From Escherichia coli (GTDB lineage: Bacteria; Pseudomonadota; Gammaproteobacteria; Enterobacterales; Enterobacteriaceae): a stretch of DNA of 64,000 nucleotides. A program made the position numbers and the translations under genes. The notes under the pieces were generated by a model. That model had not been told where the DNA came from and searched no databases. It was given only the letters and a program-made list of their open reading frames with translations. Of this stretch, positions 27,976 to 31,174 are shown one piece after another. Each line of letters begins with the position of its first letter. Positions within the stretch are counted from its first letter, which is position 1. The stretch is from the NCBI RefSeq assembly GCF_003790525.1, contig NZ_CP033635.1; one strand, given 5' to 3'.

Positions 27976-28208
27976 TGAGATCCCGTTATTTTTATCAATT
28001 TTTGTTGCTATCCGATCGCAAAAAAGCCACGTCATATGATCAGATAATTCTGATAATGATAGACGCTATTTAACACTTCACACGGTTTGTATACGGAAAA
28101 GCATTTTGCTTTTTGTATTCAATTTAGACAGAATTTTATTAATCATTTCAGGGTAATGGGGTGATGAGATGTTGCGTAACAGGGCCAGAAGGCTAGACTA
28201 CAAAATAA

Positions 28209-29213
<1,005 letters not shown>

Positions 29214-29308: not shown

Positions 29309-29430
29309 GCAGGTGAATGCAACGTCAAGCGATGGGCGTTGCGCTCCATATTGTCTTACTTCCTTTTTTGAATTACTGCATAGCACAATTGATTCGTACG
29401 ACGCCGACTTTGATGAGTCGGCTTTTTTTT
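29309..29430 (+). ncRNA. fnrS: FnrS small regulatory RNA (FNR-activated)
   Basis: GCAGGTGAATGCAACGTCAAGCGATGGGCGTTGCGCTCC...CGCCGACTTTGATGAGTCGGCTTTTTTTT matches remembered FnrS; 3' hairpin plus U8. Confidence 0.9.
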
Positions 29431-29487
29431 GCCTGTTATATATCAGCGTCTACCCTTTAAGAGTCCACCCAATGACCGGAGGGAAAT

Positions 29488-29661
29488 ATGACGACACTCA
29501 TTTATTTGCAAATTCCTGTCCCTGAACCGATTCCTGGCGATCCTGTTCCTGTGCCCGATCCGATCCCTCGCCCGCAACCCATGCCTGACCCACCCCCCGA
29601 TGAAGAACCGATTAAATTGTCGCATCGTGAGCGTAGATCTGCGAGGATACGTGCCTGCTGA
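29488..29661 (+). CDS. Candidate small proline-rich protein / upstream ORF (57 aa) 30 nt before dbpA
   Basis: ATG with SD GGAGGG 5 nt upstream; MTTLIYLQIPVPEPIPGDPVPVPDPIPRPQPMPDPPPDEEPIKLSHRERRSARIRAC; under 60 aa so absent from ORF track. Confidence 0.4.
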   Translation: MTTLIYLQIPVPEPIPGDPVPVPDPIPRPQPMPDPPPDEEPIKLSHRERRSARIRAC

Positions 29662-29690
29662 CTTTGCGTCGATGACCACGAGAATAGATT

Positions 29691-31064
29691 GTGACCGCTT
29701 TTTCTACCCTGAATGTTTTGCCTCCCGCCCAACTCACGAACCTTAATGAGTTGGGTTATTTAACCATGACGCCGGTGCAGGCCGCCGCGCTTCCGGCGAT
29801 CCTTGCCGGAAAAGATGTTCGCGTGCAGGCGAAAACCGGCAGTGGCAAAACGGCGGCTTTTGGCCTCGGCTTGTTACAGCAAATTGATGCGTCGCTATTT
29901 CAAACCCAGGCTTTAGTGCTGTGTCCTACGCGTGAACTGGCGGATCAGGTGGCAGGTGAATTGCGTCGGCTGGCGCGTTTTCTGCCAAATACCAAAATTT
30001 TGACGTTGTGCGGTGGTCAACCGTTCGGTATGCAGCGTGATTCGTTGCAACATGCGCCGCATATTATCGTGGCAACGCCGGGTCGTTTGCTGGATCACTT
30101 GCAAAAAGGCACGGTATCACTGGATGCGCTGAATACTTTGGTGATGGATGAGGCCGACCGCATGCTGGATATGGGATTTAGCGACGCCATTGATGATGTC
30201 ATCCGTTTTGCGCCAGCATCTCGACAGACGCTTCTGTTTTCGGCAACCTGGCCGGAAGCCATCGCCGCAATCAGCGGACGAGTGCAACGCGATCCTTTAG
30301 CGATTGAAATTGACTCAACAGATGCTCTGCCTCCCATTGAACAACAATTTTATGAGACATTCAGCAAAGGCAAAATTCCGTTGTTGCAACGGTTATTAAG
30401 TTTGCATCAGCCATCCTCTTGCGTGGTGTTTTGCAATACCAAAAAAGATTGCCAGGCTGTCTGTGACGCGCTGAATGAAGTAGGGCAAAGTGCATTGTCG
30501 TTACACGGCGATCTGGAGCAACGCGATCGCGATCAGACTCTGGTACGTTTTGCTAACGGTAGCGCCCGTGTACTGGTCGCGACTGATGTTGCTGCGCGTG
30601 GTCTGGATATTAAATCGCTTGAGCTGGTAGTGAACTTTGAACTGGCGTGGGACCCTGAAGTTCATGTACATCGCATCGGTCGTACAGCGCGTGCAGGAAA
30701 TAGCGGTCTGGCGATCAGTTTCTGTGCCCCGGAAGAAGCACAGCGGGCCAATATCATTTCTGACATGTTGCAGATAAAACTTAACTGGCAAACGCCGCCA
30801 GCTAATAGTTCCATTGTGCCGCTGGAAGCCGAAATGGCAACGTTATGTATCGATGGCGGGAAAAAAGCCAAAATGCGCCCGGGTGATGTATTAGGTGCGC
30901 TGACAGGAGATATCGGGCTTGATGGCGCAGATATTGGCAAAATCGCCGTGCATCCGGCGCATGTCTATGTCGCGGTGCGTCAGGCTGTTGCTCATAAAGC
31001 ATGGAAACAGTTACAGGGCGGGAAGATTAAAGGAAAAACGTGCCGGGTGCGGTTATTAAAATAA
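29691..31064 (+). CDS. dbpA: ATP-dependent RNA helicase DbpA (DEAD-box, 23S rRNA-specific)
   Basis: 457 aa; AKTGSGKT, DEAD (VMDEADRMLD), SAT, HRIGRTAR motifs. Confidence 0.93.
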   Translation: MTAFSTLNVLPPAQLTNLNELGYLTMTPVQAAALPAILAGKDVRVQAKTGSGKTAAFGLGLLQQIDASLFQTQALVLCPTRELADQVAGELRRLARFLPNTKILTLCGGQPFGMQRDSLQHAPHIIVATPGRLLDHLQKGTVSLDALNTLVMDEADRMLDMGFSDAIDDVIRFAPASRQTLLFSATWPEAIAAISGRVQRDPLAIEIDSTDALPPIEQQFYETFSKGKIPLLQRLLSLHQPSSCVVFCNTKKDCQAVCDALNEVGQSALSLHGDLEQRDRDQTLVRFANGSARVLVATDVAARGLDIKSLELVVNFELAWDPEVHVHRIGRTARAGNSGLAISFCAPEEAQRANIISDMLQIKLNWQTPPANSSIVPLEAEMATLCIDGGKKAKMRPGDVLGALTGDIGLDGADIGKIAVHPAHVYVAVRQAVAHKAWKQLQGGKIKGKTCRVRLLK

Positions 31065-31112
31065 TGAAATGTTGAATCGCAGGGTGCAAGAGTCAATATC
31101 TTCTTCGGGATT

Positions 31113-31174
31113 GCCGGATGCGACGCTGGCCGCGTCTTCTCCGGCCTCCATAAGAGTAGCCCGATAAGCTTGCG
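31113..31174. repeat. BIME: two REP elements in inverted orientation between convergent dbpA and ttcA
   Basis: GCCGGATGCGACGCTGGCCGCGTCTTCTCCGGCC followed by GTAGCCCGATAAGCTTGCGCATCGGGC. Confidence 0.6.

Follow-up and report, generated by a model that had tools for sequence, protein, structure and literature searches.

The proline-rich small-protein gene ynaL of Escherichia coli probably carries the dbpA promoter in its last third

Is the 57-codon, proline-rich ORF that precedes the RNA helicase gene dbpA of Escherichia coli a translation-sensing leader coupled to dbpA, or a small-protein gene in its own right? Both readings had been offered in an initial annotation made from the sequence of a 64,000-nucleotide stretch of DNA, referred to here as the window. 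In the ORF list, the ATG frame (29488..29661, + strand) and its peptide, MTTLIYLQIPVPEPIPGDPVPVPDPIPRPQPMPDPPPDEEPIKLSHRERRSARIRAC, match that description exactly. The GGAGGG Shine-Dalgarno (SD) motif is present at 29478-29483, 4 nt from the ATG, and the ORF does lie between FnrS (29309-29426) and the dbpA GTG start codon (29691). The single PPP run that had been singled out occupies codons 35-37 (29590-29598). Two figures needed adjustment: the gap between the stop codon of the ORF and the dbpA start is 29 nt (29662-29690) rather than 30, and proline accounts for 16 of the 57 residues (28%) rather than about 35%, with residues 10-41 reaching 50%. Features of the interval are collected in Table 1.

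Table 1. Coordinates of features between FnrS and dbpA, numbered from the first nucleotide of the window
Feature	Position	Strand	Basis
FnrS small RNA gene	29309..29426	+	Rfam RF01796, 134.8 bits, E 2.4e-25; fnrS in K-12 annotation; Kim 2012 TSS at 29309
FnrS intrinsic terminator	29403-29432	+	Stem 29403-29422, then T-run to 29432; terminator scan
Candidate ynaL promoter: TTGCCT 29429-34, 16-nt spacer, TACCCT 29451-56	29429..29456	+	Inferred; overlaps the T-run of the FnrS terminator
SD motif GGAGGG of ynaL	29478..29483	+	Sequence; 4 nt before ATG
ynaL coding sequence, 57 codons + TGA	29488..29661	+	ATG start; CDS WP_001296046.1
Proline-rich core, codons 14-40, PIPGDPVPVPDPIPRPQPMPDPPPDEE	29527..29607	+	Conserved amino acids; third-position entropy 1-1.9 bits
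PPP, codons 35-37 in DPPPD (codons 34-38), predicted EF-P-dependent pause site	29590..29598	+	P35 in 68/68, P36 in 65/68, P37 in 67/68
Probable dbpA promoter, upstream block CCGATTAAATTGTCGCAT: A/T tract and -35-like TTGTCG (29617-22); ynaL codons 41-46	29608..29625	+	Entropy ~0; kept in Kluyvera without the ORF; <=50 nt upstream of TSS
Probable dbpA promoter, variable part of spacer; ynaL codons 47-49	29626..29634	+	Premature stops in 12 loci
Probable dbpA promoter, extended -10: TG 29640-41, n 29642, GAGGAT 29643-48	29640..29648	+	TGn[T/G]A...T form in 79/80 loci
Probable dbpA promoter, GC-rich discriminator, 8 nt, ACGTGCCT here	29649..29656	+	ACGCGCCT in every other ynaL-bearing locus examined
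dbpA transcription start site, +1 = G, in ynaL codon 57, 2 nt before the ynaL stop codon	29657	+	Kim 2012
dbpA 5' UTR, 34 nt; conserved CGAGA (29679-83) as weak SD	29657..29690	+	Sequence comparison; Kim 2012
dbpA, ATP-dependent RNA helicase, GTG start	29691..31064	+	ORF listing; annotation

The ORF is ynaL (b4743), an already catalogued small-protein gene of the Enterobacteriaceae, and is not new. The window is 100% identical to E. coli SMS-3-5, and ynaL is annotated under the match in the records listed. The ynaL stretch is present in about 5,390 of 5,426 complete E. coli genomes, and the gene is annotated there; the names in use are ynaL, "protein YnaL" and "proline-rich small protein YnaL" (NCBI), with coordinates 1409308-1409481 in K-12. 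Residues 1-57 align to positions 1-57 of the 57-position Pfam model PF23677.1, "Protein YnaL-like" (score 136.8, i-E 2.2e-40), a family carried by all 120 homologues among the matches listed. The order fnrS, ynaL, dbpA on one strand is the position of the YnaL family. A protein search returned 162 YnaL relatives at E <= 0.001, and the named matches all belong to the Enterobacteriaceae, with genera that include Citrobacter, Enterobacter, Klebsiella, Raoultella, Salmonella, Kosakonia and Leclercia.

Synthesis of the protein has been demonstrated previously. An identical K-12 YnaL sequence, located between fnrS and dbpA, was reported by VanOrsdel 2018 (PMC6001520), and its product was seen by immunoblot of a chromosomal SPA-tag fusion in MG1655. 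The same paper notes that ynaL was an unidentified positive in a screen by tetracycline-arrested ribosome profiling, and remarks that ynaL adjoins dbpA and that the two may have an operon or a function in common. Reading the ORF as a small proline-rich protein was therefore correct and already established, by the gene entry (ynaL/b4743), by PF23677 and by the SPA-tag and tetracycline ribosome-profiling evidence (PMC6001520). The main text of Weaver's preprint and "The Cryptic Bacterial Microproteome" make no reference to ynaL. Two other short features were seen in the window. A 15-residue ORF annotated by RefSeq as "protein YnaN" lies directly upstream of zntB at ~28169-28216 (1370-1417 of locus L001). 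Between dbpA and ttcA, 31109-31145 gives a sub-threshold Rfam match to naRNA4 (22.7 bits as compared to a gathering threshold of 59.5, E 0.52) and is probably a REP-like element.

Selection on the peptide was followed in 80 species-level dbpA loci with their upstream DNA, taken from many enterobacterial genera. In 68 of the 80 loci, the DNA immediately upstream of dbpA contains a YnaL-like ORF. ORF length is 46-65 codons, and every locus in which the core could be placed has an ATG with an upstream SD-like motif, which is GGAGG in most instances. Across codons 14-40, most proline positions are 96-100% conserved and D34 is 100% conserved, while third positions are free (entropy 1-1.9 bits). For codons 18-40 the dN/dS is 0.069 at dS 1.31 (68 loci), as compared to 0.041 at dS 1.52 for dbpA; the other two sense frames over the core give values above 2.5. 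A core dN/dS of 0.07 indicates purifying selection on the peptide, on the sense strand. The codon-level comparison that the initial annotation had proposed thus supports a real peptide, since synonymous and nonsynonymous changes are not equally frequent in the core. This selection says nothing about coupling to dbpA. The PPP run is intact in 64 of 68 loci and reads PSP or PPQ in the other four.

The antisense glycine-rich frame also has a low dN/dS (0.10) because CCN/GGN symmetry mirrors the sense frame. Its boundaries are erratic, it is without a conserved start or stop, and the start codon is missing in 10 loci. The earlier dismissal of this frame as an artefact is borne out by these erratic boundaries and missing start codons.

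In E. coli strain E69 (locus L004), an in-frame deletion at the equivalent of 29512-29544 has removed 11 codons from the PxP repeats (PVPEPIPGDPV lost), and the ORF is still open. The deletion suggests slippage between repeat units.

AlphaFold2, run on a 30-sequence family alignment, gives an extended chain (pTM 0.22) in which a 4-residue N-terminal helix is the sole secondary structure; pLDDT is highest, 90-93, over residues 21-40. A PDB profile search found no YnaL relative, and NCBIfam returned only compositional, sub-threshold matches to TonB and surface-protein repeats. The best-supported view is that selection acts on the short acidic PxP segment, which would probably serve as a linear binding motif. 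PPP, DPP and PPD are strong staller contexts, and XPPX motifs are EF-P-dependent. YnaL contains such a motif in DPPPD at codons 34-38, and from the pause predicted there its synthesis should be EF-P-dependent. In a table of EF-P/EfpL pauses, dbpA is present (PPI) and ynaL is not among the rows listed.

It is very unlikely that ynaL is translated but functionless, as an instance of pervasive translation of a proline-rich ORF upstream of a promoter. No phenotype, partner or fold is known for YnaL, its N-terminus is highly variable across loci, the ORF has been lost in Kluyvera, and one E. coli strain (L004) carries the 11-codon in-frame deletion. However, the core dN/dS of 0.07 holds at saturating dS over many genera and is comparable to that of dbpA, the core is never found without a conserved start codon and SD, and the family has its own curated Pfam model.

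Whether translation of ynaL could influence dbpA depends on where dbpA transcription begins. Kim 2012 (PMC3415461, supplementary file 2) lists a dbpA TSS at NC_000913.2 1407501 (+), with 126 reads and a 5' UTR of 34 nt. The RNA had been treated with terminator exonuclease, which enriches 5'-triphosphate ends, and came from one dataset of mid-exponential cells only. The upstream sequence given for this TSS equals the window sequence except for one base and places the TSS at window position 29657. A start near 29655-58 had been predicted from the promoter alignment, and 29657 lies 9 nt after the end of the -10 hexamer (T29648). As a check on the table, the FnrS TSS falls on 29309, the start of the Rfam match. 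No TSS besides dbpA's own is listed between FnrS and dbpA in this one mid-exponential dataset. Because position 29657 is inside ynaL codon 57, the main dbpA mRNA does not contain ynaL, and ynaL translation, stalled or not, therefore cannot act there. Within the 34-nt dbpA leader, many single-sequence folds contain a small hairpin, CACGA-N7-UUGUG (29677-29693), which pairs the weak dbpA SD region with the GTG; A-to-G changes on its 5' side keep the pairing (A-U to G-U).

The 3' third of ynaL behaves differently from the core. In codons 41-46 (29608-25) and 50-57 (29635-58), third-position entropy is ~0 and the DNA itself is invariant. Twelve loci have a stop at codon 47 or 48 and hence no RSARIRAC tail, yet the DNA of the block is kept. 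The ORF extends 2-5 codons further in nine other loci, and the ynaL stop lies 63 to 14 nt before dbpA, depending on the locus. The C-terminal residues PIKLSH...RSARIRAC are probably conserved only because the promoter DNA is conserved. TG-C-GAGGAT, with A at hexamer position 2 and T at position 6, has the form of an extended -10 element. Such promoters can work without a -35. TGCGAGGAT varies at a single base, the unconstrained "n" of TGn, which is C or A.

Twelve of the 80 loci carry no ynaL: five are of Kluyvera type and seven are more distant (Cedecea, Dryocola-like, Atlantibacter and Siccibacter). In the case of the five Kluyvera-type loci, FnrS and its terminator are followed by no proline-rich ORF, yet GATTAnTTGTCGCATC...AGATCTGCGAGGATACGCGCCTGCTGA is found ~57 nt before dbpA. 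The seven distant loci have ATGACC, 17 bp of variable sequence, TGC-TAGAAT, TGC-TAGACT or TGC-TAGCAT, and a GC-rich discriminator. Their extended -10 is TGCTAGAAT, TGCTAGACT or TGCTAGCAT, and the distance to ATGACC is always exactly 17 bp. Judged from sequence, these loci have a sigma-70 promoter of textbook form, extended -10 included. The -35-like TTGTCG of the ynaL and Kluyvera clade lies 20 bp from the -10 hexamer, as compared to 17 bp for ATGACC in the distant loci.

The Kluyvera-type loci (L070, L071, L073, L074 and L075) look as though a clean deletion of ~150 nt, at a point ~120 nt upstream of dbpA, had taken out the ynaL SD, start codon and proline-rich core, with FnrS, the CTACCCT element and the dbpA promoter block remaining. 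A GATC (Dam) site at 29636-29639, in the invariant AGATCT, is kept in nearly all ynaL-clade and Kluyvera loci and not in the distant genera. SMS-3-5 has T at 29652, where every other ynaL-bearing locus examined has C (ACGTGCC as compared to ACGCGCC). This C-to-T change is synonymous in ynaL (CGT/CGC) but falls inside the dbpA discriminator.

A consensus promoter scan found neither the dbpA promoter nor the candidate ynaL promoter, because both are below its 9-of-12 threshold. A literature search found no specific paper on the dbpA promoter or its regulation. The hexamer GAGGAT is poor and TTGTCG is 20 bp off, and the promoter model alone leaves the invariance of 29608-25 and of AGATC partly unexplained. 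Extra constraint may come from a bound factor or from structure in the long RNA, and at 29608-25 also from a UP-like A/T tract.

The invariant 3' block could instead be primarily an RNA element, namely a hairpin, GGCGC-AG-AUCU[GNRA]GGAU-AC-GCGCC, on the ynaL transcript that serves as a 3' stabiliser, a processing site or a protein-binding site. This is improbable. The hairpin is recovered by single-sequence folds in most genera with a GCGA or GAGA loop, both of which are GNRA. The loop base that alternates between C and A is just as well accounted for as the free position of TGn. In the alignment, 79.5% of cells pair as compared to 25-48% with slid partners, and the covariation score is 0.070, a value that none of 500 shuffles attained (0.043 in shuffles); both comparisons use a structure derived from the same sequences. 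However, the inner stem and 3' arm never vary, pairs of the lower stem fail to form in 25-60% of sequences, and just two pairs have changed on both sides. In stability, the E. coli fold does not stand out from shuffled sequences (z = -0.96). The distant genera keep the promoter features and lose the hairpin, and the dbpA mRNA begins 3' of it. RNA structure was therefore dropped as the first explanation of the invariant block, which is explained better by a promoter with a mapped TSS. The block was also considered as a mimic of 23S rRNA hairpin 92, the DbpA substrate, and showed no resemblance to it when compared by eye.

Transcripts that do contain ynaL must begin upstream of it. Judging from conserved motifs, transcription of ynaL would start at a weak promoter that overlaps the FnrS terminator, or would come from read-through of that terminator. 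The TTGCCT and TACCCT hexamers of the candidate promoter are conserved in E. coli, Citrobacter, Enterobacter, Klebsiella and Kosakonia, with a constant 16-nt spacer of variable sequence, and the spacing collapses in Kluyvera, where ynaL is missing. Terminator scans found no terminator-like site between ynaL and dbpA, and ynaL transcripts therefore also carry dbpA.

On such longer transcripts, ynaL could act as a leader ORF and control dbpA in cis through translation that depends on PPP and is sensitive to EF-P, either by coupling across the 29 nt or by melting a structure that masks the dbpA start. The arrangement has some suggestive features, as the ynaL stop is only 29 nt from the dbpA GTG with no terminator between them, and the dbpA initiation region is weak (GTG, CGAGA). 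The PPP run is intact in 64 of 68 loci but has become PSP or PPQ in four, the 25-residue conserved peptide is about as long as the conserved part of arrest peptides, and polyproline stalls can uncouple transcription from translation (Elgamal 2016). On the long RNA, UGUGAC at the dbpA start is a possible partner for the invariant GUCGCA (29619-24); however, this pairing is itself invariant and its 5' arm belongs to the promoter, which makes it uninformative. RNAalifold returned only six invariant pairs, those of GUCGCA with the dbpA start, with a covariation term of -0.04, and thus gives no covariation.

Control of dbpA by ynaL translation in cis is nonetheless unlikely. The primary dbpA TSS at 29657 keeps the ORF out of the main mRNA, and only the FnrS TSS lies upstream in Kim 2012. 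Kluyvera has the promoter and dbpA but has lost the ORF, and the more distant genera have the promoter and no ORF. A stop position that varies from 63 to 14 nt before dbpA is a poor fit to precise coupling. Features expected of leader attenuators are absent here: the ORF is not in the leader of the regulated mRNA, no terminator or alternative structure is backed by covariation, and the ORF does not consistently co-occur with the regulatory region. The translation-sensing leader proposed in the initial annotation is thus not supported for the main dbpA mRNA, given the TSS at 29657, the loss of the ORF in Kluyvera, the lack of a terminator or covarying structure and the replacement of PPP in 4 of 68 loci. 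Such a leader could operate only on the minority of longer transcripts.

A more elaborate proposal also concerns RNA started upstream by FnrS read-through or the weak promoter. There, EF-P-dependent translation of the C-rich, proline-coding ynaL message would decide whether polymerase remains coupled and passes over the dbpA promoter, with a DPPPD stall letting Rho release polymerase, and dbpA output would be tied to translation capacity or anaerobiosis through promoter interference or the bicistronic mRNA; alternatively, the acidic PxP peptide would bind the ribosome or DbpA. We regard this proposal as quite unlikely.

Taken together, it is likely that ynaL is a real, known gene whose core is constrained as protein and whose last third is constrained as the dbpA promoter, and that the main dbpA mRNA is without ynaL. 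ynaL sits between the FnrS terminator and dbpA, and under this explanation only its acidic PxP-repeat middle, ending in DPPPDEE, is constrained as protein. The last third would constitute the dbpA core promoter, comprising the A/T tract, TTGTCG, TG-n-GAGGAT and the GC-rich discriminator, with +1 at 29657. dbpA would be transcribed mainly from this ynaL-internal promoter as a monocistronic mRNA with a 34-nt leader. The ynaL transcripts would start upstream and run into dbpA, giving a minority bicistronic species. DPPPD would make YnaL synthesis dependent on EF-P, as for any XPPX protein, and YnaL, if it acts in trans, would most likely do so as a short linear binding motif.

These results add nothing to the gene catalogue, as ynaL is annotated, a Pfam family exists and translation was shown in 2018. 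Their added value is only the overlap of gene and promoter, with a warning for the mutation or tagging of ynaL. The last ~50 nt of ynaL are probably the dbpA promoter; mutations there would alter it, and phenotypes assigned to ynaL may therefore stem from dbpA. The SPA tag on ynaL went in at the 3' end, exactly at the dbpA +1. The idea of an EF-P-responsive leader can be dropped for the main dbpA mRNA, which spares experiments. More generally, conservation of a small ORF can mislead: about one third of the "conserved residues" of YnaL are promoter, and only the PxP core shows selection as protein.

Compared with known systems, the ORF agrees with YnaL (b4743, PF23677) in sequence, length and fnrS/ynaL/dbpA position, and the proteins do not differ. 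The Salmonella leader ORFs mgtL (of mgtA) and mgtP (of mgtCBR) sense proline or EF-P availability. Like them, ynaL is a short ORF with consecutive proline codons 5' of a larger gene, where EF-P- or proline-dependent stalling is the proposed signal. mgtL is also discussed in PMC5021804. Both Salmonella ORFs are part of the regulated transcript's own 5' leader, where they overlap alternative stem-loops or a Rho site. In contrast, the main dbpA TSS is downstream of ynaL, no covarying alternative structures are present, and ynaL has 57 codons with a long conserved peptide. ynaL also resembles SecM-secA, TnaC-tnaA and MifM-yidC2 in that a conserved nascent segment ending in proline precedes a gene with weak or occluded initiation. 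Those arrest peptides are co-transcribed with their targets and stall beside a structure that masks the target SD, whereas the ynaL PPP is ~90 nt from the dbpA SD and on a transcript other than the main dbpA mRNA.

The proline-rich spacer of TonB (PF16031; NCBIfam NF008084) shares alternating X-Pro repeats with acidic and basic residues. The resemblance is compositional only (20.8 bits as compared to a cut-off of 315, i-E 0.75), and YnaL is without TonB domains or a membrane anchor. The dbpA promoter is like extended -10 sigma-70 promoters (rrnB P1-type) in its TGn, its hexamer with A2 and T6, its 8-nt GC-rich discriminator and its mapped +1, but differs in its weak GAGGAT hexamer and in a -35-like element 20 bp away in the ynaL clade. 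rrnB P1 reads TATAAT-GCGCCACC-A. The dbpA discriminator, ACGCGCCT (GCGCGCCA in distant genera), with +1 placed 9 nt after the -10, resembles that of rrnB P1. By analogy, growth-rate or ppGpp/DksA control of dbpA, which encodes a ribosome-assembly helicase, would fit an rrnB P1-like discriminator.
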